Of a stretch of DNA of 64,000 nt, positions 13,840 through 63,776 are shown piece after piece; position 1 is the stretch's first letter, and each line of letters starts with the position of its first letter. The notes under the pieces are model-generated. The model was not told the origin of the DNA. It did no database searches and saw only the letters and a program-made list of their open reading frames with translations. The DNA comes from Patescibacteria group bacterium (GTDB taxonomy: Bacteria > Patescibacteriota > Microgenomatia > UBA10105 > UBA927), in the NCBI GenBank assembly GCA_035510735.1, contig DATKGN010000004.1, forward strand, positions 243,810 to 307,809, in the 5' to 3' direction. A program made the position numbers and the translations under genes.

Positions 13840-13911
13840 GGAGCCGTAGCTCAGCGGTAGAGCGCTACTCTTATAAAGTAGATGTCCTTGGTCCGAATCC
13901 AAGCGGCTCCA
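13840..13911 (+). tRNA. tRNA-Ile, anticodon UAU (TAT)
   Basis: Folded by hand. Acceptor stem GGAGCCG/CGGCTCC is a perfect 7 bp; D arm GCTC-AGCGGTA-GAGC; anticodon stem CTACT/AGTAG with loop CUUAUAA (U33, A37); variable loop 5 nt; T arm CTTGG-TCCGAAT-CCAAG; discriminator A. CCA is not encoded. Confidence 0.8.
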
Positions 13912-13912
13912 C

Positions 13913-20249: not shown

Positions 20250-20546
20250 ATGGCCAAGTTAAATATAAAGCCGTTGTTTGATAATGTTCTCATTAAGCCC
20301 CTAGAAGCTGAAGAAAAGCTTCCTTCAGGAATTATCCTTCCCGATAGCGCGAAAGAAAAACCCCAGATGGGTGAAGTGATGGCCGTAGGCCCGGGATCTG
20401 TTGATGAGAAGGGCAAAGAAGTGAAGATGGTCGTGAAAGTCGGCATGAAGGTTATGTATAAAAAGTGGGGAGGCAATGAAGTTAAAGTAAACGGCGCCGA
20501 ATGGATGCTCGTTGAGCAGAAGGATATATTGGCAATTGTTGAATAA
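20250..20546 (+). CDS. groES: Co-chaperonin GroES
   Basis: 98 aa, MAKLNIKPLFDNVLIKPLEAEEKLPSGIILPDSAKEKPQMGEVMAVGPG. Confidence 0.95.
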   Translation: MAKLNIKPLFDNVLIKPLEAEEKLPSGIILPDSAKEKPQMGEVMAVGPGSVDEKGKEVKMVVKVGMKVMYKKWGGNEVKVNGAEWMLVEQKDILAIVE

Positions 20547-20621: not shown

Positions 20622-22304
<1,683 letters not shown>

Positions 22305-22334
22305 ACCCAACATTGTAACTAAGTGTATAAACTC

Positions 22335-22362
22335 AAAACCCCGCTCCCAAGCGGGGTTTTGG
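22335..22362 (+). terminator. Rho-independent terminator after groEL
   Basis: AAAA-CCCCGC-tcccaa-GCGGGG-TTTTGG. GC stem followed by a T-run, 31 bp after the groEL stop. Confidence 0.8.
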
Positions 22363-22369
22363 TAGAAGA

Positions 22370-23593
22370 ATGAAGAAAGATTATCTGCATCTCAAAGAGG
22401 TTGATCGTCAAGAGCTTCTTGTTGTTTTGTTGGGATATTTCGGTAATGCTTCAAGTCTGGCGGTAAATGTACAGCGATATCAAAAAGCAGGCAGCAAAGA
22501 TTTTTTGATTGTTGAAATGGATAAGGAAAGTAAAATACAGAAAGTGAGTTTATCTAGTCACTTTCCAGTAACTAAACTCGAGGAAATAGAAAGCCTTATT
22601 GAAAAAACTCTTTTAAAAAAAAATTCGAGTGTTGGGCATACAATACTTTTCTGTCATGAACCGATAAATGGTTACTTTATTTATAAAGATGAATTTCAAA
22701 TTTTACCAGTACCAAAGGAGGCTCCTCGTCCGGAAGTCTCTTGGGCTGATCATCCCTTCGTTTTGGAGTTTAGATACGAGGGTTCAGATAATCCAAGTGT
22801 AGACTCAATTCGTAAAGGTAATAAGATAACAACATATACACGAATCCTTAATTTACTATTAAACCGAAGCGTAAGCGCTGGTTGGAAGTATGCTCGATTT
22901 GAATGGATATACAATACCGATGATATTCGTCATATGACTTCTCAATGGAAGCAGGTGGGGTATACCTTTCAAGGTGTGAATTTCGACGGTAGTTCTTTTA
23001 CGAGTATAGTTGACATACCAGAACTAAAAAGAGTCGCTAATACAGATTATTATAAAGAATTCTATAGAGGAACTGGAGAATTGCAGCTACCTGATAATCT
23101 CGAGTCATCTCTGGATTCGGCATTTAATCTTCCGGAGGAATTATATAAGAAATTTTTTATGTCTATTAGTTGGCTATCATTTTATAATCATCTTTGGAAT
23201 GTTTCCGCTTCTTCTGCTTTTATAGCTTTAGTTTCTGCGATTGAATGTTTAATTAGAAATTCGGAAATATGTAATGTTTGTCATCAAAATTATGTGGATG
23301 AACTTGACTTTTGTCCAAATTGTAAGCAGCAAAGATACGGATTAACAAGAAGTTTTAAGGAATTTTTAGTGGATTTTATTCCTAATATAAAGAGTTTCCC
23401 TATCGAAAAAAATACTCTATATAATACGCGTTCTCAATTAGCCCACGGTTTAGAACTATTAATGTCCGATTTACAACCTTGGGGTTTTATTATGGGAGCC
23501 AAAGAACAAGAACAACGTGATTTACAAAGTAACTTGTATCGATTGACTAAAATTGGTATTTATAATTGGTTGCAGGTTAGTGGCCAAAAATAG
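22370..23593 (+). CDS. Hypothetical protein with zinc ribbon and HEPN-like Rx4H motif; candidate defence/toxin effector
   Basis: CNVCHQ...CPNCK zinc ribbon followed by NTRSQLAHG (R-x4-H) in a helical C-terminal region. The AT-rich patch appears confined to this ORF's N-terminal half. Confidence 0.4.
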   Translation: MKKDYLHLKEVDRQELLVVLLGYFGNASSLAVNVQRYQKAGSKDFLIVEMDKESKIQKVSLSSHFPVTKLEEIESLIEKTLLKKNSSVGHTILFCHEPINGYFIYKDEFQILPVPKEAPRPEVSWADHPFVLEFRYEGSDNPSVDSIRKGNKITTYTRILNLLLNRSVSAGWKYARFEWIYNTDDIRHMTSQWKQVGYTFQGVNFDGSSFTSIVDIPELKRVANTDYYKEFYRGTGELQLPDNLESSLDSAFNLPEELYKKFFMSISWLSFYNHLWNVSASSAFIALVSAIECLIRNSEICNVCHQNYVDELDFCPNCKQQRYGLTRSFKEFLVDFIPNIKSFPIEKNTLYNTRSQLAHGLELLMSDLQPWGFIMGAKEQEQRDLQSNLYRLTKIGIYNWLQVSGQK

Positions 23594-23844
23594 TGTTCCA
23601 TTAGTTCGATATTTTGGATATACTTTTCAATTTGTTATACCCCATTAATAATATTTTATACGCGGCGGTTTGTATCGGACTTGCGAATCTTCCGTATAAA
23701 CAATAAAGGGACAAGAGACCAAGGCAGTTTAATAATCTTGTCTTATAAAGACTCGCACTAATTTCCACAAATGGGGCTCTAATTCGAAGTAAATATGCAA
23801 TTAAGTATCTTAATAAGATATAATTTTGATTAAAGATAAATAAT

Positions 23845-24726
23845 ATGGGTGGCGAAGCGAACGAATTATTGATTCAAAGACAAGCGGGAATGCTCAGTGA
23901 GTTTGACGCTGTTATCCCACCCGACTCTGTACCGTTGACCGGGCTACGAGAATACATTCATAAAGATCCGATGTCTCATAATCGGAGTCCTTTTATATTG
24001 GCTAGCGGGTATCTATATGTTCATTTATCTAATTCAACTGATGAGAGAGAAAGATTACGCAGACTATTTGATATAGAACCTTCACTTATTAATAAGAGTG
24101 TCATGGATGTAATCAAATCTAAATTAGCGTCAGCGCAATTTAAACACCCGGGTTGGAAATTAGTAACAGATATATTGTATTCTGCTTTGGATTCCGCAAT
24201 TACTAAGCCAATAACGCATAAATTTGTTTTAAACTCACGTAGCCAAGTTTTAGGATGGGGAGAATGCGCGTATGCTGAGGATAGCTTCGCATCAGCATTA
24301 GATATATTTGATTCTGGCTTGGACGAAAAATTAGCATTTTTTTGTGATGAAAATGAAGAACCTGTTATAGCTCAAAAGATTGGCAAAGATGTTAGATTTG
24401 ATGGAGGTCGAGAGTCAACAGCCACGGCGATAGCGCTAAAACCATTAGCGGTTCAAGAGATTTTGGTTCCTCCTGGTACTTTGTTAGGTATTCGAACACG
24501 GAATGAATCGTACATCGGATCAGCGACGGATTTACTTGCCAGTACTTCATACATTACAGGTGTTACACCATTAAGATTCTCTACAATGGTAATCGATAAT
24601 CCCGATGAAGCCCTAGCGACTTTTGGGAAACAATATGCAGCATTACAAAAAGAATGTAAAAATGGCGTCGCTCCGACTATTCAATCTTTTATTGATTACT
24701 ATCGCACTAATATGCGAACACAATAG
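23845..24726 (+). CDS. Hypothetical protein, downstream of the HEPN-like protein
   Basis: 293 aa ORF with no recognisable motif, separated by a 250 bp AT-rich spacer. Confidence 0.35.
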   Translation: MGGEANELLIQRQAGMLSEFDAVIPPDSVPLTGLREYIHKDPMSHNRSPFILASGYLYVHLSNSTDERERLRRLFDIEPSLINKSVMDVIKSKLASAQFKHPGWKLVTDILYSALDSAITKPITHKFVLNSRSQVLGWGECAYAEDSFASALDIFDSGLDEKLAFFCDENEEPVIAQKIGKDVRFDGGRESTATAIALKPLAVQEILVPPGTLLGIRTRNESYIGSATDLLASTSYITGVTPLRFSTMVIDNPDEALATFGKQYAALQKECKNGVAPTIQSFIDYYRTNMRTQ

Positions 24727-24832
24727 GCTTGTGAATCGTTAATTTTAGCTTGTCCTCTGTTGCATTCTTCTTGAAGACTATGAAATGCACGGTTTCCGAT
24801 GAAGATCTTTGACACCCGTGTGCGATTGGATT

Positions 24833-26145: not shown

Positions 26146-27432
26146 ATGGGTGTCGAACAAAATCCAACCAGCTCTCCTAGCAAATCCGTTTCCCATTTGG
26201 TGAATGCAACTTTTTGGATGATTGAGGCTTTTGAACATCGTAAAGATATGACTCAACCGTGGGATGACCATGCGATAAATGGGTTACTTGCGGAACGCAA
26301 AATGGTTAATTTGCAAAATGCCCATAGTGCAGTCGTTATCGCACTGGAGCCGTACATTAGTGCGTTACGAAATGATGCATACGTTGTAGATATTGGCATC
26401 GGTGACGGACAATTATACCCGCTATTTTCAAGTGAAAAACATATCCGTCTTATCGGAATAGAGCCCGAACGACAAATGGTAGAACGAGGCGTGACACAGG
26501 GGAGACTGCCTAAAGATATTCAAATAGTAGATACATTGCCGCCATATGATGATATTCCTGATCGATCCATTGACCTTATGTACAGCGTTTCAACGTTTCA
26601 CGCAGTGTCGGAAACTCTTCTTCGATCAATCATCCGAAATTTAAAGCAGAAATTCCGGGGCGACGAACAATTTGTTGGAGTACAAGATATTGGAACAGGG
26701 AATACGTACCTACAGCACGTTTCCCGGGAAACGATGGACAGCATTAGTGAGTATATTTTACGTAAGTACGCGTTGTCTTCGTTTGATATCGGAAAACTAT
26801 TCGATCACGGTGGGTTGTTAGGACTGTATCACGAGCGGGTTCTTATGGACGTTTATCGTTCGATTTCGCATGCTGGACGTGTTCGAAATCAACGAATTGT
26901 TACCATCAATACTCCGAAGGAAATAGAGCAGCTTTCCTTCCACAAATCTTGGGATATGACACGGGAAGTTATCCAGGAAATCGCTCAATATAGGCATTCA
27001 AGCAATAATTTGACGAAATATCGCACCGAAGACGAAATTCGGGCGTATATCAAAACTGGGGATAAAAAGGGAGTTATGAAGATGATACATGCGCTTCACA
27101 GATATCTTAAATTGTTACACGAAATGCCTGATTCATATTTAAATAATCCCATATTTCAAAGAGCAAGGGTTGGTATTAGTGCGCTACTTGGATCTGTGAA
27201 GCAGGATATATATGAAGGCTATTTACAGTATGTTTTTAGTTCAGAGGGGTTTTCAGTTACCCCAAAACGTGCTACTACCTACCGGGAATATGAAGTACAT
27301 GATCCGGTCATATATCCTCCATATGCGTCATCCAGTATAGATGGAAGTTTAAATGGTGTTCCCTCACCGGGAAATCTGAGCATACTTATGAGTACGAGAG
27401 TTTTTGTGGCGGAAAACAAAATGCATGAATAG
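26146..27432 (+). CDS. Hypothetical protein with possible class I SAM-methyltransferase-like motif
   Basis: YVVDIGIGDGQLYPLF resembles MTase motif I and a later IGIEP resembles motif II. No DPPY/NPPY-type motif, so it is unlikely to be a DNA amino-MTase. Confidence 0.3.
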   Translation: MGVEQNPTSSPSKSVSHLVNATFWMIEAFEHRKDMTQPWDDHAINGLLAERKMVNLQNAHSAVVIALEPYISALRNDAYVVDIGIGDGQLYPLFSSEKHIRLIGIEPERQMVERGVTQGRLPKDIQIVDTLPPYDDIPDRSIDLMYSVSTFHAVSETLLRSIIRNLKQKFRGDEQFVGVQDIGTGNTYLQHVSRETMDSISEYILRKYALSSFDIGKLFDHGGLLGLYHERVLMDVYRSISHAGRVRNQRIVTINTPKEIEQLSFHKSWDMTREVIQEIAQYRHSSNNLTKYRTEDEIRAYIKTGDKKGVMKMIHALHRYLKLLHEMPDSYLNNPIFQRARVGISALLGSVKQDIYEGYLQYVFSSEGFSVTPKRATTYREYEVHDPVIYPPYASSSIDGSLNGVPSPGNLSILMSTRVFVAENKMHE

Positions 27433-27462
27433 TGGTGGCTCCGAGAACCGTTTGCCTATGAT

Positions 27463-28494
27463 TTGCGCATATACTATGCTTACGCTATGGCAGAGCAAGT
27501 CTATAACGAACCGGGAAGTTCTAAGAACGCATTTGAAATCCTCAAACCGCACATTGTCCCCGGCGTCGGACTCGCCGATCTTATCGGCGTTATGAACGCC
27601 CAACAACTTACGCATGAATTTGCGTTCAAAAACGTCGGAGATATTGCCCAGTGGCTTACGAAGAGTTGGTTTGCCAAATTGCCGGAAAAACTTGTAGGAA
27701 TTCTTGAAATACCAAACCCAGGGTTTGAAGAGCGGTCACCCCAACCTCTCATTTATGAAATTCCCGGAGAACATATTAGAGTGAACAAAAAACGGATTGT
27801 CGTTCATGGTGTATTTCATGCGCCGAATTACAATGAAGATGCTCCAAATATTGAATTCCCCGGGATTCTTAGAGATTATGCAAACTTCACATATACAGTG
27901 GGAGATAATTGGTTTTCAGAACAAGGGCTCGATAAGGTTTTTGGCATTTCCAATGTATGTACCCCGTTACATGACATGACGGGTTACGCATTGTCTAGGA
28001 GTACGCTTTTCGACAAAAGTCATCCAAGACCAAAAAACTTAATTGGAAAAGTTGTATATGGGTATAAATTCGCAAAGTATTTTGGTAACGAGGTTTATGG
28101 GGGAGCGAGTGAATTTCACGAAATGAATAAATTTGACGAAAGTAATAGATTATTTGAACGATATACGAACAATTTTCAGGATTTGCTTTTATTAAAGTAC
28201 TTATATAATAACTTTAAAATGCCGGAACCATTACAAATGGAAGTCAATATAGCATTGGATAGTCGTACGAAAGGATTGGGTGAGCAAAATAGAAACGGAA
28301 CAATTCAGAGGTCTCTTCTTCAAGCGTATGAAGTATCCGGTTTACTACCAGAAACAACGTTAGAAAAAGATCATAATTACATCCACGTACTTGTTGGAAT
28401 TACTCATGAACATCAGGTGGTGTACGCCCTTCAACATCCTGATTACGATCCGTTTCAAGCGGTTATCGCGGCTCAAGAACTTATTACGCGGTAA
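27463..28494 (+). CDS. Hypothetical protein
   Basis: 343 aa ORF with no recognisable motifs. Confidence 0.35.
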   Translation: MRIYYAYAMAEQVYNEPGSSKNAFEILKPHIVPGVGLADLIGVMNAQQLTHEFAFKNVGDIAQWLTKSWFAKLPEKLVGILEIPNPGFEERSPQPLIYEIPGEHIRVNKKRIVVHGVFHAPNYNEDAPNIEFPGILRDYANFTYTVGDNWFSEQGLDKVFGISNVCTPLHDMTGYALSRSTLFDKSHPRPKNLIGKVVYGYKFAKYFGNEVYGGASEFHEMNKFDESNRLFERYTNNFQDLLLLKYLYNNFKMPEPLQMEVNIALDSRTKGLGEQNRNGTIQRSLLQAYEVSGLLPETTLEKDHNYIHVLVGITHEHQVVYALQHPDYDPFQAVIAAQELITR

Positions 28495-60244: not shown

Positions 60245-60300
60245 CCCATCTAATCAGATTTTTCACGTAAGAACGTTGTAAATCTGAGTAAGATGGGTTT
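60245..60300. terminator. Long hairpin between convergent genes (bidirectional terminator candidate)
   Basis: CCCATCTAATCAGATTT-(18 nt)-AAATCTGAGTAAGATGGG followed by TTTAT. Lies between the + strand stop at 60231 and the - strand stop at 60329. Confidence 0.5.
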
Positions 60301-60328
60301 ATATCAGGACAACTTCGCTAGGATGTAT

Positions 60329-61003
60329 TTAGAGCGCCAATCCGATAAGAACGAGCATGAAGGCGCCGCCTACGACGGAAGCACCCAGGACTGAAGGACC
60401 GGAACCGGTTACCGGCGTTGTAGGAGTCGAAGCGGCCGCTACTTCACAGATACAGTTTGTCTTGTCCGTACAACTCGGGTTACGGCATGACCCTGAGATA
60501 CACACGAGTCCTGAACTACAATCCGAATTGAGCGAACAACCGCTGTTGCACGAAGAGAGAACCGGTGTCGGCGTTGGTGTTGCTGTTGCCGAGACACAGG
60601 TACAGCTTGATTGATCGGTACAGCTTGGGTTTCGGCATGAACTGCCTGAGCAGACTAATCCGCTTGAACAATCCGCATTGACGGTACAGGAGTTGTTGCA
60701 TCCGGCTAAAGGCGTCGGTGTCGGTGTATTGGTGGGCGTTTCGCTCGGTGTACCGGTGGGCGTTGGGGTATCGGTTGGTCCGGGAGTGCCCGTCGGAGTA
60801 CTTGTCGGTGTTGCAATGGCAAATGATAGGGTACACGCGGGTTCTGCCGCTTTTGGCGTGATTTGCGGGACGTTCGGCGCTATAGGAGAGGTTTTTGTCA
60901 ATTGCTGGCTCGTCACAAACGTAAGGACGGCAAGTCCGATCGTAATGATACCGACCAAGAATACGTACCAATTATTTTTCAAATGTTTCATAGTTAATGC
61001 CAT
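60329..61003 (-). CDS. Cell-surface Thr/Pro-rich protein with duplicated Cys-rich module, N- and C-terminal hydrophobic segments
   Basis: Two consecutive copies of a roughly 38 aa module (CNNSCTVNADCSSGLVCSGSSCRNPSCTDQSSCTCV and CNSGCSLNSDCSSGLVCISGSCRNPSCTDKTNCICEV). TP-rich linker. C-terminal LVLIGLAL tail. Confidence 0.5.
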   Translation of the reverse strand: MALTMKHLKNNWYVFLVGIITIGLAVLTFVTSQQLTKTSPIAPNVPQITPKAAEPACTLSFAIATPTSTPTGTPGPTDTPTPTGTPSETPTNTPTPTPLAGCNNSCTVNADCSSGLVCSGSSCRNPSCTDQSSCTCVSATATPTPTPVLSSCNSGCSLNSDCSSGLVCISGSCRNPSCTDKTNCICEVAAASTPTTPVTGSGPSVLGASVVGGAFMLVLIGLAL

Positions 61004-62370
61004 TGACCGTCAGACCCAAAAATTTCCGATTCGACGGTAAAGTTCGTCGTACCTACCGGAATCGTATAATCAAGTGTATATTCGCCTGCGCTATTTTGTA
61101 TTGCCGTTTCGGTAAACGCGCCGCCGTTGACACGGATATGCGCCTTTGTTGCATTGCCACCCGCAACTGCAATCGTCACGTCATCGCCCGGTTGAAGAGC
61201 AGCGAGCCCTGCCGCATCCAGCACGGTAGTTCCTTTATAGACCTTAATATTCGTACATTGAGAAGCAGGAGTAGGAGTGGGTGTGCTACCCCCTCCGCCG
61301 CCACCCCCTCCGCCGCCACCCCCTCCGCCGCCACCGTTAGAGGTCGTCACTGTACAACCAATGGTATTTTGACCGCCACTCGAGGCACATGTCGTATAGT
61401 GCCAATTAGCACAAGCGTCTGCATTTTGTCCCTGATCGCATCCTACTCCGGCTGGCACCCATGTTTGGCCAGGCCCGGGTGTAGGAATTACACCAGTCTT
61501 TGGATCTGGGGTTGGGAATACGATCGGTGGTAATTTACCGCTTGCATCAAGGTTTGCCTGAGGGTTAGAGACAACTTCAACCCCTGGATTAGCTATGGCA
61601 AATTTAAGTGCTGCTGTTTCTGTATCCGGCAATGCAATAATGAACCGCTGACCGTTTGAAATATAGGTGCCGGCGATCTGTACAGGATTAGAGCCTGTGG
61701 TAGCCTGCCACTGCTCTTTCGTGGCAACTGTAGTGGTACCGCTTATCGTTCCGTAAGTATTTACTGGTGCAGTTGCCGCCGCGGCCGCCGGAGCTGCTGT
61801 TGCCGGAGCTGCTGTTGCTGCTGCCGCAGCCTGCTGAGCGTTATAGTTATCATTTTTCGCCTCCTGGTTTGCGTTAATGTGTGCACAATATCCGTTTGAT
61901 TTATCACATGCAAAACCAAAAAGGGTAAGGGTATTTTTTATACCAATGACTGCAACGGGCAGAGTAACGAGCATAAACAAGAGAAGCGTGATAACCCCCA
62001 CGCGGGATTTCTTTTTTTTGATCGTCTCATGCGGCGGAGTTACCGGTTCTGCCGGCGGACTTTGCTTCGGATCCGAAGGCTTTGCTATTTTTATTTCCTC
62101 CTCAGGTGGAGGGACGATAAGAGAATCTGAAGGAGGCGACGCCATAAAGGGAGAGCCCGAAAGCGGTGTAGGCGTTGGAGGATCCTGCGTGTGGCTTGGG
62201 GTGGCAGAATCCGGCAGTGTTTGCGTCGGTTGTCCGGCAGGTGATGCACTTAAGGGAGAATTGGTCGACATCGGGTCTGGTGGCGGAGGCGCGACCGACG
62301 CCGGCGCAGATCCCTGCGAACCTGCTTTACTACTTGTATCTGCTTGTGCTGTGTCTAAAATGTCTGCCAT
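60994..62370 (-). CDS. Surface/secreted protein with Pro-rich N-terminus, TM helix, poly-Ala/Thr and poly-Gly low-complexity tracts
   Basis: G17 run encoded by three 15 bp tandem repeats (CCCCTCCGCCGCCAC x3, 61289-61333). AAAAATAAPATAAPAAAAATAP encoded by repeated gccggagctgctgtt units. Confidence 0.5.
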   Translation of the reverse strand: MADILDTAQADTSSKAGSQGSAPASVAPPPPDPMSTNSPLSASPAGQPTQTLPDSATPSHTQDPPTPTPLSGSPFMASPPSDSLIVPPPEEEIKIAKPSDPKQSPPAEPVTPPHETIKKKKSRVGVITLLLFMLVTLPVAVIGIKNTLTLFGFACDKSNGYCAHINANQEAKNDNYNAQQAAAAATAAPATAAPAAAAATAPVNTYGTISGTTTVATKEQWQATTGSNPVQIAGTYISNGQRFIIALPDTETAALKFAIANPGVEVVSNPQANLDASGKLPPIVFPTPDPKTGVIPTPGPGQTWVPAGVGCDQGQNADACANWHYTTCASSGGQNTIGCTVTTSNGGGGGGGGGGGGGGGGSTPTPTPASQCTNIKVYKGTTVLDAAGLAALQPGDDVTIAVAGGNATKAHIRVNGGAFTETAIQNSAGEYTLDYTIPVGTTNFTVESEIFGSDGQWH

Positions 62371-62447
62371 ACCATAAATTCACCAGAAATAATCAGGCCT
62401 AACTATACATTAGAATGGATGAGTGTGAGAAGTCAATAAATAAAATA

Positions 62448-63776
62448 TTAATGGGTCGCGATGAGAGAGCCGCTTGCAAAAAGGCTAACTCCGAGGAGTA
62501 TTAAAAGGATTGCCGGAAGCTCATTGCCGGTCACCGGTTGTGGCTGTCCTGACAGCGTTGATTCCGGAGTTGTCGTTGCAGCTATCGTACCGGTATCGGT
62601 TGGGATCATTGTAATAATGGGCGTGATTGTGGGTGCAAGTGTTGCCGATGGTGTAGCATCACCTAATACCTGAGTGCCGCTTTTGAATACTTCAAATGTG
62701 TGGGTGATTGCAACGGTTTTCCCTAATTGATTGACCGATGTTATGGTAACGCTTTGTTTACCCGGCGCTAACGCTTTTGGCGGGGTATAGCTCCACAGGC
62801 CGCTCTCATCCACTTTTGCTGAGCCGCTCATTATTTGTGTGATGCCGACGCTTACACCCACATATTTACCGGGAATACCCGTCCCCTGGATAAGGGGATG
62901 CGTGGTTGCAAGCCCGGTACCCTGACCGGGAGTGGTTAGGGAAACTATAAATGTCCTACTCGTCGTATCGCCAAGAACTGCGGCCGTCGGAAGGACTGGT
63001 GTCGGCCGAAGCGCAAGGGCTGTCGTGCCCTGGACTTTTGCCTGTTGACGGCGGAAATCATACGTTTTTCCCAAAAGCATTTCCGGCACCGGAGAATCAT
63101 TAAGCGTATCCGTTATTGCAGTTGACTCAAGACCCTCGGCTTCGACGGTAATATGCTCGGTCATGCGGTCAACTGTCGGTAAATAACTTGTGACATCCTG
63201 TGTCCGGATTTGATTGAGCGGAATCAGCCAAAGACCTGTTGATTTGGTGAGTGTTGATAATTCCTGACTTCCGTCGATGGTCAGGTATATGAGCGCTCCG
63301 TCTTCGGGTCTGTCGGTGGTGGCATGAACGGTGCCGTATGCAGGCTCAAGACCGGTTGTGTTGGGCGGTAATGTTGCCGCGGTTTGAAGTGGGTACGCCT
63401 GACCGTTGTTGTCATAGTACTTGCTATTGGATAAAAGTTTGATTGAATAATTCGTTTGAGACTTGGCGTCACGGACGGTAATACTGTGGGTTGTGTATGT
63501 GCCGAGTTTACCGGTTGTATCCCGCTGGTCGTAGTAAACTTGATTACTTTTCCCGGGCGCTGAAACCAGGATCGTCCCCGTTGTCGGTAATTGAGTGGTC
63601 CATGATACGGTAAACGTGGAATCGCTAACGTTCGACATGTGGACATTTGACGGAGCTTGCGACCCTGAAGCATTAGACGGAGCGAGAAATACGTTTTGGA
63701 ACACAATGATAGTGCCGATAATGAATATTATTAAAAATAATCCTATGATGGTTGGAATTTTTGTCGGCAATCTCAT
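62448..63776 (-). CDS. Large secreted protein with FN3-like N-terminal domain and C-terminal membrane anchor
   Basis: N-terminal signal/TM. PSNVHMSNVSDSTFTVSWTT...YYD resembles an FN3/PAP-N-like domain. C-terminal LPAILLILLGVSLFASGSLIATH. Confidence 0.45.
   Translation of the reverse strand: MRLPTKIPTIIGLFLIIFIIGTIIVFQNVFLAPSNASGSQAPSNVHMSNVSDSTFTVSWTTQLPTTGTILVSAPGKSNQVYYDQRDTTGKLGTYTTHSITVRDAKSQTNYSIKLLSNSKYYDNNGQAYPLQTAATLPPNTTGLEPAYGTVHATTDRPEDGALIYLTIDGSQELSTLTKSTGLWLIPLNQIRTQDVTSYLPTVDRMTEHITVEAEGLESTAITDTLNDSPVPEMLLGKTYDFRRQQAKVQGTTALALRPTPVLPTAAVLGDTTSRTFIVSLTTPGQGTGLATTHPLIQGTGIPGKYVGVSVGITQIMSGSAKVDESGLWSYTPPKALAPGKQSVTITSVNQLGKTVAITHTFEVFKSGTQVLGDATPSATLAPTITPIITMIPTDTGTIAATTTPESTLSGQPQPVTGNELPAILLILLGVSLFASGSLIATH

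Follow-up and report, generated by a model that had tools for sequence, protein, structure and literature searches.

What does the AT-rich islet that directly follows groEL in this 64-kb window of an uncultured Patescibacteria genome encode, and do its two genes belong together? The window is the whole stretch of DNA analyzed here, and positions are counted within it. The islet carries two open reading frames (ORFs), ORF1 and ORF2, which a first-pass annotation made from the DNA letters had read as a horizontally acquired defense or toxin module. Our analysis suggests that ORF1 is probably a solo HEPN-type defense ribonuclease (RNase) of a new family and that ORF2 is not its partner. On balance, we lean toward the explanation that the islet is acquired DNA with two independent cargo genes, of which ORF1 encodes a HEPN-type RNase that would act alone as an abortive-infection or anti-phage effector. 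The argument is carried by residues that are invariant across a large protein family and that fall, in the predicted structure, where HEPN domains have them, by the genomic contexts of the ORF1 homologs, and by the separate occurrence of the homologs of the two genes. The locus is laid out as follows.

20250-20546: groES, upstream of groEL
20646-22304: groEL, upstream of the islet
22334..22361, plus strand: intrinsic terminator hairpin of groEL (12-bp stem, 4-nt loop, 100% complementary)
22363..24830, no strand: AT-rich islet, from the groEL terminator to the stop codon of the M20 peptidase gene
22370..23593, plus strand: ORF1, 407 aa
23594..23844, no strand: spacer, 251 bp, G+C content (GC) 0.30
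23845..24726, plus strand: ORF2, 293 aa
24833-25933, minus strand: M20 peptidase gene, convergent to ORF2

ORF1 represents a large, unannotated protein family

A word-indexed search recovered 33 full-length homologs of ORF1 (25-46% identity), all of them unnamed or hypothetical, and a protein identical to ORF1 has a database entry titled "MAG TPA: hypothetical protein VMR81_03190" (MAG, metagenome-assembled genome). A profile search covering 1.84 billion cluster representatives extended the family to 1,822 clusters at 50% identity with E<=1e-3 (1,444 with E<=1e-10 and 777 with E<=1e-30); among the best 150 clusters, nearly all are full-length proteins of 390-430 aa. Named members occur in groups as different as Patescibacteria and Steroidobacteraceae and are without exception called "hypothetical protein". 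The beginning of the proteins, MKKDY, is conserved, and fusions are occasional, with two members carrying an N-terminal helix-turn-helix domain and one a fragment of a Type I specificity subunit. Searches of Pfam, NCBIfam, PADLOC, and PHROGs with ORF1 and with 46 diverse family members returned no significant match, the only signals being sub-threshold ones to zinc ribbons, and no match was found among PDB sequences with single proteins and three profiles as queries. The family is contained in none of the database releases used (PADLOC 2023, Pfam 2025, and NCBIfam 2026). The ORF1 family thus consists of a large number of unannotated, ~400-aa proteins.

Conservation was assessed in two sets, one of 33 close homologs and one of the 46 diverse members, whose identity ranges down to 22%. 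Residues R148, W179, S281, E292, R354, S355, H359, and G360 are invariant in all 46 diverse members. The AlphaFold2 model of the full-length protein (predicted local distance difference test, pLDDT, 84.8; predicted template modeling score, pTM, 0.83) divides ORF1 into two domains, to which the conserved elements can be assigned as listed here.

22370..23074, plus strand: N-terminal alpha/beta domain, residues 1-235 (AlphaFold2 pLDDT mostly 85-96, ~13 strands)
23075..23590, plus strand: C-terminal helical, HEPN-like domain, residues 236-407 (AlphaFold2 model and hhalign comparison with HepT)
23243..23245, plus strand: codon of E292, Glu in 33/33 close homologs and 46/46 diverse members
23270..23323, plus strand: zinc-ribbon-like insert C301-x2-C304 ... 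C315-x2-C318, between predicted helices 2 and 3
23429..23449, plus strand: Rx4H(G) motif R354-S-Q-L-A-H359-G360, with R, S, H, and G in 33/33 and 46/46

The N-terminal domain contains the invariant residues R148 and W179 together with a conserved Pro-rich segment, FQILPVP..AP.P...HPF, and showed no significant fold match in either the PDB or BFVD. The C-terminal domain, modeled alone, reaches a pLDDT of 89.3 and harbors the remaining invariant residues.

The C-terminal domain of ORF1 resembles HEPN domains in the arrangement of its invariant residues

In the analysis of Anantharaman et al. 2013 (PMC3710099), HEPN domains have an acidic residue, when present, in helix 2, inserts are typically located between helices 2 and 3, and the Rx4-6H motif is placed at the end of helix 3. 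In domain numbering, the helices predicted for the C-terminal domain of ORF1 span residues 21-43, 45-57, 90-101 (short), 109-123, and 142-171 (the long last helix). E292 (E57 in the domain) is the last residue of helix 45-57, the predicted HEPN helix 2; after it come the Cys-rich insert, at domain residues 58-89, and the short helix. R354 and S355 (R119 and S120) lie near the end of helix 109-123, and H359 and G360 (H124 and G125) come immediately after it; the full motif in ORF1 reads T353-R-S-Q-L-A-H-G360. Thus, R354 and H359 form an invariant motif of the Rx4-6H type, the position of this motif in the model, judged from DSSP secondary structure only, corresponds to the end of HEPN helix 3, and E292 and the Cys insert would occupy the places of the acidic residue and of the insert. 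In the predicted structure, then, the C-terminal domain agrees with HEPN in all three positional features. Because the Rx4H motif is invariant across a large family, it is no chance match. The first-pass annotation had singled out the C-x2-C pairs and the NTRSQLAHG segment within a helical C-terminal region; both are present, and the region is helical in the AlphaFold2 model.

The Cys-rich insert is far less constant than the residues around it. Two CxxC pairs are present in 22 of the 33 close relatives and in only 4 of the 46 diverse members, 37 of which have a single CxxC and 5 none; only the second CxxC is widely kept, with C318 conserved in at least 90%, and the zinc-ribbon matches of ORF1 in Pfam are weak and below threshold. 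A C4 zinc ribbon is thus not a hallmark of the family. Since a lone CxxC is unable to form a C4 zinc site within one subunit, a zinc site between subunits is conceivable in the members with a single pair.

For profile comparison, a HepT/DUF86 profile was built, starting from a PF01934 gene present at one of the homolog loci. Aligned with hhalign to a single HepT sequence, the ORF1 domain gave an E-value of 0.011, with E292 placed on the Glu of LLEILGEA and RSxLxHG on RDRLIHG. Against the HepT profile, the E-value was 0.042-0.046, the alignment covering the motif only, and 15 of 300 column shuffles scored as well; after removal of the zinc insert, the E-value was 0.02, the alignment spanned 52 columns from helix 2 to the motif, and 5 of 300 shuffles reached a score as good. 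The register pairs E292 with HepT E47 (LLEvlGEA) and the Rx4HG motif of ORF1 with HepT R76-x4-H81-G82. The empirical p for the comparison is thus ~0.02-0.05, and the statistical support that these alignments lend to homology with HEPN is weak. In a positive control, the same HepT profile reached solved HepT toxins (7AE9 and 5YEP) only at E-values of 0.06-0.08, again over the motif only; because the profile barely detects even these, weak scores are normal between true HEPN families.

ORF1 homologs occur as solo genes in defense islands and mobile DNA

The neighborhoods of ~13 independent ORF1 homologs were inspected. Many contain genes of defense systems or mobile elements, as listed below by locus (E-values in parentheses).

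L002: pair of a cyclic oligonucleotide-based antiphage signaling system (CBASS; cyclase, 3.8e-102; two-transmembrane, 2TM, effector, 1.2e-52) on one side and Type III restriction-modification (RM) genes (restriction endonuclease, 2.7e-94; methyltransferase, 2.6e-158) on the other
L004: Type III RM and PDC-S18 (3.8e-98)
L005: integrase, resolvase, and D5-type primase genes
L012: methyltransferase and Mrr-type nuclease
L020: Type IIG RM (3e-65)
P0029 locus: Cas6/Cas3/Cas8b, integrase, and ArdC
L026: QatA-like KAP NTPase (4.5e-44)
L007 and L027: DUF4238
L023: TIR-domain protein
L024: DDE transposase

No conserved partner gene was found: an all-against-all comparison of the flanking proteins linked only near-identical loci. 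None of the homolog neighborhoods involves groEL, and the surroundings differ completely from locus to locus. The pattern is that of a solo gene traveling with defense islands and mobile DNA.

Several of these loci are of interest in their own right. In the MAG GCA_027459745.1, a compact defense island (L002:3784-12642) has the order CBASS pair, resolvase, ORF1 homolog, 247-aa unknown, 236-aa unknown, and Type III RM; where this locus has the 236-aa gene, L004 has PDC-S18 (DUF5655). The 247-aa downstream gene was considered as a conserved partner and dismissed, being confined to two closely related loci. In three loci (L002:5249-7218, L004:5245-7218, and L005:5227-7218), the ORF1 homolog is preceded, at a distance of ~120 nt, by a divergently oriented gene for a small serine recombinase (210-218 aa). 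The recombinase and ORF1-homolog pair is similar at the DNA level (72-77% identity), while the wider surroundings of the three loci differ, and the pair may move as a small unit. The idea that the homologs linked to a resolvase have an invertible promoter beside them was rejected, no inverted repeat being conserved between the loci. A protein with a DUF4238 domain (PADLOC DUF4238-Pers, 6e-16; L007:3954-4850) adjoins one ORF1 homolog, and a second DUF4238 gene (L027:893-2077) lies 1.6 kb from another, which could be a recurrent association.

Weighing the HEPN assignment and the defense role

Several lines of evidence speak against ORF1 being a HEPN-type defense RNase. On the side of the domain, hhalign assigns the match to HepT a probability of only 1-4%, and for the 46 members and the family profile no match was obtained to HEPN-clan Pfam families, ApeA, PD-T7-3/4, Abi models of PADLOC, NCBIfam, or PDB sequences. 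Foldseek searches of the PDB returned nothing below an E-value of 0.25 for the full model and nothing below 2.1 for the C-terminal domain, with Csm6 (rank 3, E 2.7, template modeling score, TM, 0.38) and AbiV (rank 27) appearing at noise level. On the side of the contexts, the pattern described above is a list of ~13 loci without a background statistic, two loci (L009 and L028) have housekeeping-like surroundings, and no relatives of ORF1 were recovered from phage, plasmid, and IMG/VR collections by tblastn with three members and an IMG/VR scan. As for the locus itself, the flanks of ORF1 in the window are housekeeping-like and a check of the window genes with PADLOC, as a test for a defense island, gave no match, so that there is no defense island here. 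Furthermore, a promoter scan found no promoter-like site upstream of ORF1 on the plus strand, because of which its expression in this genome is uncertain.

In addition, the full model had no match below an E-value of 0.1 in BFVD, and the C-terminal domain did not superpose as a four-helix up-down bundle on solved HEPN domains. It is therefore worth considering that the family is linked to conflict or mobile DNA but has a C-terminal domain other than a HEPN RNase. The invariant E/R/S/H/G residues would then sit in an unrelated helical bundle, where they would carry out a different reaction or form a binding site; such a bundle could belong, for instance, to a sensor of nucleotides or nucleic acids, to a regulator, or to a hydrolase of another type. 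The lack of any significant sequence or fold match to a HEPN family fits this explanation, as does the low hhalign probability; besides, helical bundles are common, and an Rx4H motif is short. However, the conservation of five residues without exception, in members as remote as 22% identity, points to catalysis. Where these residues sit on the predicted helices fits the three positional features of HEPN domains, and in the best hhalign path against HepT, E falls on E and R/H/G on R/H/G, with only 5-15 of 300 shuffles doing as well. Moreover, genuine HepT structures are themselves marginal to the HepT profile. Taken together, we regard a domain unrelated to HEPN as rather unlikely, if by some distance the most serious of the competing explanations.

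We hold, with moderate confidence, that HEPN is the best-supported assignment of the ORF1 C-terminal domain. It is the best reading of the data and not a demonstrated one, because Foldseek gives no significant HEPN fold match. Of the initial claim that ORF1 bears the hallmark of HEPN RNases, what stands is an invariant Rx4H motif at the position defined for HEPN domains; a significant HEPN fold or a match to ApeA or Abi models did not materialize.

ORF2 is an orphan cargo gene and not a partner of ORF1

Among 5.8 billion proteins, ORF2 has a single homolog, P0034 (71% identical), apart from a fragment of ORF2 itself, and it had no match in Pfam, PADLOC, NCBIfam, PHROGs, or PDB sequences. The layout with two ORFs and a spacer of ~250 bp, as first described, agrees with the coordinates obtained here. 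P0034 is located in an element (L001) after ftsA-ftsZ of another genome, flanked by a Phage_CRI-type replication gene and a Fic gene. The DNA similarity to this element defines a cassette:

23759..24777, plus strand: ORF2 cassette, 71% DNA identity to L001 7922-8935 (blastn, 1028 nt, E 2e-131)

The similarity is limited to ORF2 plus 86 nt upstream and 51 nt downstream. The element itself (L001:3987-10963) consists, in this order, of a tyrosine integrase, two unknowns, the Phage_CRI-type replication gene (phrog_702, 4e-24), the ORF2 homolog, Fic, and an unknown.

A joint toxin-antitoxin or defense module of two genes, with ORF1 as HEPN toxin and ORF2 as its partner, is suggested by the position of the genes, which are adjacent, on the same strand, and both low in GC within one islet. 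The distribution of their homologs largely refutes such a module. The L001 locus, with the sole ORF2 homolog, lacks ORF1, and ~13 independent loci with ORF1 homologs lack a relative of ORF2, their flanking proteins being mutually unrelated. Furthermore, the two genes are separated by the 251-bp spacer, the similarity to L001 begins only 86 nt upstream of ORF2, and the spacer contains no repeat or structure resembling an RNA antitoxin. Among the explanations weighed here, we consider the two-gene module the least probable, and very improbable in absolute terms.

The spacer (23594..23844) had no Rfam match, no tandem repeat, and no unusual fold (fold z -1.1), so that an RNA antitoxin or a repeat array in it was discarded as a candidate. 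Likewise, a recurrent operon of ORF1 and ORF2 was dropped from consideration, the genes not co-occurring in unrelated genomes. Because its sole homolog lies in an element without ORF1, and the loci of the ORF1 homologs are without an ORF2 relative, ORF2 is not a partner of ORF1. It can be classed only as orphan cargo of an integrative mobile element, with an upstream region of its own. The initial proposal of a defense or toxin module therefore survives in part: homologs of ORF1 occur in defense islands and mobile contexts, and ORF2 is no component of such a module. For annotation practice, the locus is a warning against inferring a module from adjacency and a common low GC.

The composition of the islet suggests horizontal acquisition

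On its left, the islet is bounded by the terminator hairpin of groEL, beyond which the ATG of ORF1 follows after 8 nt. That this terminator is strong, as had been noted from the sequence, was borne out by folding (dG -23.9 kcal/mol, z -4.4; 0/200 shuffles fold equally well). The 2.47-kb islet has a GC of 0.360 versus 0.444 +/- 0.025 for windows of the same size elsewhere (minimum 0.390; z -3.3), which makes it the lowest-GC stretch in the 64 kb, and it is among the two strongest tetranucleotide outliers of the window. GC at third codon positions (GC3) is 0.257 in ORF1 and 0.286 in ORF2, compared with 0.36-0.58 in neighboring genes. The compositional anomaly pointed out in the first-pass annotation is thus real and, for this window, exceeds chance, as measured by both windowed GC and tetranucleotides, but it does not stop, as had been thought, at about the middle of ORF1: the whole islet is AT-rich, and by parts the GC is 0.363 in the first half of ORF1, 0.324 in the second half, 0.303 in the spacer, and 0.393 in ORF2, so that the second half of ORF1 and the spacer are the most AT-rich. 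Because its composition deviates, the islet looks horizontally acquired, in keeping with the original suggestion. Scans of the window for tRNAs, repeats, and ORFs found no tRNA at the islet borders, no recombinase or integrase gene inside, and no meaningful flanking direct repeat.

The arrangement of the islet is identical in four contigs carrying ORF1, two of which come from different sequencing runs, and an exact-GroEL look-up for strains lacking the islet gave no return. The sole relative recovered, Microgenomates RBG_16_45_19, whose M20 peptidase is 69% identical, has neither ORF1 nor ORF2 beside M20; the groEL synteny is also absent there, and no synteny is shared beyond M20.

An AT-rich stretch also follows M20 in RBG_16_45_19 (L014:9001-11000; GC 0.34-0.37 versus ~0.50 farther on). 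Its cargo differs, consisting of a DinB-like ORF and unknown ORFs, and DNA may insert recurrently downstream of M20. Two independent Logan assemblies (L017 and L018, position 1) both stop 94 nt upstream of ORF1. The break falls inside a 9-nt tandem repeat that encodes the GGM tail of GroEL (22266-22296), and the idea that it reflects a strain polymorphism was set aside for this reason; the contig ends are probably an assembly break at the repeat.

The position of ORF1 raises the further possibility that the protein serves the cell outside any conflict, for instance in RNA processing or in regulation linked to groESL, the low GC then reflecting local composition and not transfer. The gap between the terminator and the ATG of ORF1 is too short for a promoter, and it is a matter of speculation that ORF1 is expressed by terminator read-through from the groESL heat-shock operon. 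This possibility of read-through transcription, given an ORF1 that begins 8 nt past the terminator without a promoter-like site, is compatible with a cellular role, and so are the same arrangement in the four ORF1 contigs and the one homolog that lies among housekeeping genes. In contrast, the neighborhoods of the homologs all differ, none of them including groEL, and the nearest relative, identified through its M20 peptidase, has neither gene beside M20. The GC3 of 0.26 in ORF1, against 0.36-0.58 in its neighbors, and the recurrence of recombinase, RM, CBASS, and Cas genes beside the homologs likewise argue against it. We therefore consider a cellular role improbable and continue with acquired DNA carrying a putative defense RNase.

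Other features of the window

The window contains a single tRNA gene (13840-13912), a tRNA-Ile with the anticodon TAT (UAU). In most bacteria, the AUA codon is read by a modified tRNA with a CAU anticodon, and the UAU anticodon is therefore unusual. The second strong tetranucleotide outlier, at 60250-63720, is GC-rich (~0.50-0.52). Beyond the M20 gene, two ORFs of 428 aa and 343 aa (26146-28494) have a lowish GC3 of 0.36-0.37 and no PADLOC match; a faint methyltransferase match of the 428-aa ORF is their only Pfam record, as taken from precomputed annotation of identical L017 genes, and GC drops to 0.34-0.36 at 27800-28400, within the 343-aa ORF.

A possible mode of action and its implications

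A mechanism for ORF1 can be sketched on the model of the HEPN biology described in PMC3710099 and in the papers on ApeA, RAZR, and DARNA. By analogy, the ~235-residue N-terminal domain would sense an infection cue and otherwise keep the enzyme off. The ~170-residue C-terminal four-helix domains would dimerize in the manner of HEPN domains, bringing together a composite active site of E292, R354, and H359, and the Cys-rich, probably zinc-binding insert might stiffen or shape a loop beside it. Once activated, ORF1 would cut cellular or phage RNA, be it tRNA, mRNA, or rRNA, by catalysis not involving a metal, and the cleavage of RNA could stop translation and result in abortive infection.

Extended to the whole family, the same reasoning leads to a more tentative proposal, to which we give somewhat less than even credence: that the at least 1,800 clusters represent a new, widespread single-gene abortive-infection system, composed of a divergent HEPN RNase with a Cys/zinc insert and an N-terminal sensor without a detectable structural relative, and present even in the reduced genomes of Patescibacteria. 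If so, a sizeable unannotated family would add another architecture to the stand-alone HEPN immune RNases, such as ApeA, RAZR, and DARNA, and its sensor domain, having no known relative, may therefore recognize a new infection cue. The family is found mainly in uncultured lineages, including the candidate phyla radiation (CPR)/Patescibacteria, the immune repertoire of which is poorly known; to our knowledge, few defense systems have been described in the reduced genomes of this group. For annotation, the family is definable, and its invariant residues offer targets for mutagenesis. New HEPN-like families in defense islands turn up regularly, so that ORF1 is a well-founded candidate and no surprise.

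Comparison with known stand-alone HEPN systems

The closest match to the motif is found in HepT/DUF86 (PF01934), with RDRLIHG(Y) in HepT and RSxLxHG in the ORF1 family, and in both a Glu on helix 2, predicted in the case of ORF1, precedes the motif, at a spacing that agrees once the Cys insert is removed. In contrast to ORF1, with its 407 aa and no MNT neighbor, HepT is a protein of ~115-150 aa that is paired with the MNT antitoxin, and the similarity between the two is only marginally significant (E 0.02-0.05). No MNT (NTP_transf_2) gene was found beside ORF1 or its homologs; the sole MNT-HepT pair is a separate one, 6 kb away in L009/L035. Cxorf38 of the Swt1 clade, in which a zinc ribbon is inserted into the HEPN domain, provides a precedent for such an insert (PMC3710099), although the family is eukaryotic, carries other fused domains, and has no detected sequence relationship to ORF1.

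Among the stand-alone abortive-infection proteins, RAZR/PD-T7-4 combines a Cys4 zinc finger with a DUF4145 HEPN RNase, and its assignment to HEPN rested on weak homology together with mutagenesis of the R and H residues (PMC13017515). ORF1 is similar in joining, within one protein, a Cys4 zinc-ribbon element with a putative divergent HEPN-like RNase domain. However, the zinc finger of RAZR is a separate N-terminal sensor, whereas the Cys pairs of ORF1 (301-318) lie inside the helical domain, most members of the ORF1 family have a single CxxC, and ORF1 adds a 235-residue N-terminal domain; neither ORF1 nor the 46 diverse members matched the DUF4145 or PD-T7-4 models. DARNA/PD-T7-3, a solo tRNA- or RNA-cleaving abortive-infection protein, resembles the organization proposed for ORF1 in coupling HEPN to a large noncatalytic sensor, but its HEPN domain is N-terminal, so that the order is reversed, its sensor is all-helical, and its model did not match ORF1.

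ApeA, a single-gene defense system (Gao et al. 2020) with an HEPN_ApeA domain, for which a published structure figure shows a bound zinc ion (bioRxiv 10.64898/2026.01.26.701840), is a further point of reference. Like ORF1, it is a single protein without a partner; it carries a C-terminal HEPN-type domain with insertions, as is predicted for ORF1, next to an N-terminal region without known homology, and it occurs in RM and defense neighborhoods such as those found for the ORF1 homologs. At ~580 aa, ApeA is mainly alpha-helical and built of three domains (N, Mid, and HEPN), as opposed to the 407 aa and the alpha/beta N terminus of ORF1. Neither Pfam HEPN_ApeA/ApeA-NTD nor PADLOC models of ApeA were matched by ORF1 at E<=1 or by the 46 members at E<=0.1, and no ApeA chain appeared among the PDB sequence or Foldseek results. 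Because of the missing model match, the other size, and the other fold class of the N terminus, ORF1 falls outside the ApeA family. By analogy, the working logic is likely the same, with a sensor domain and a HEPN RNase leading to translation arrest. In the way it would work, ORF1 comes closest to the stand-alone HEPN immune RNases, and we rate it as a probable new family among them, distinct from all the named ones.

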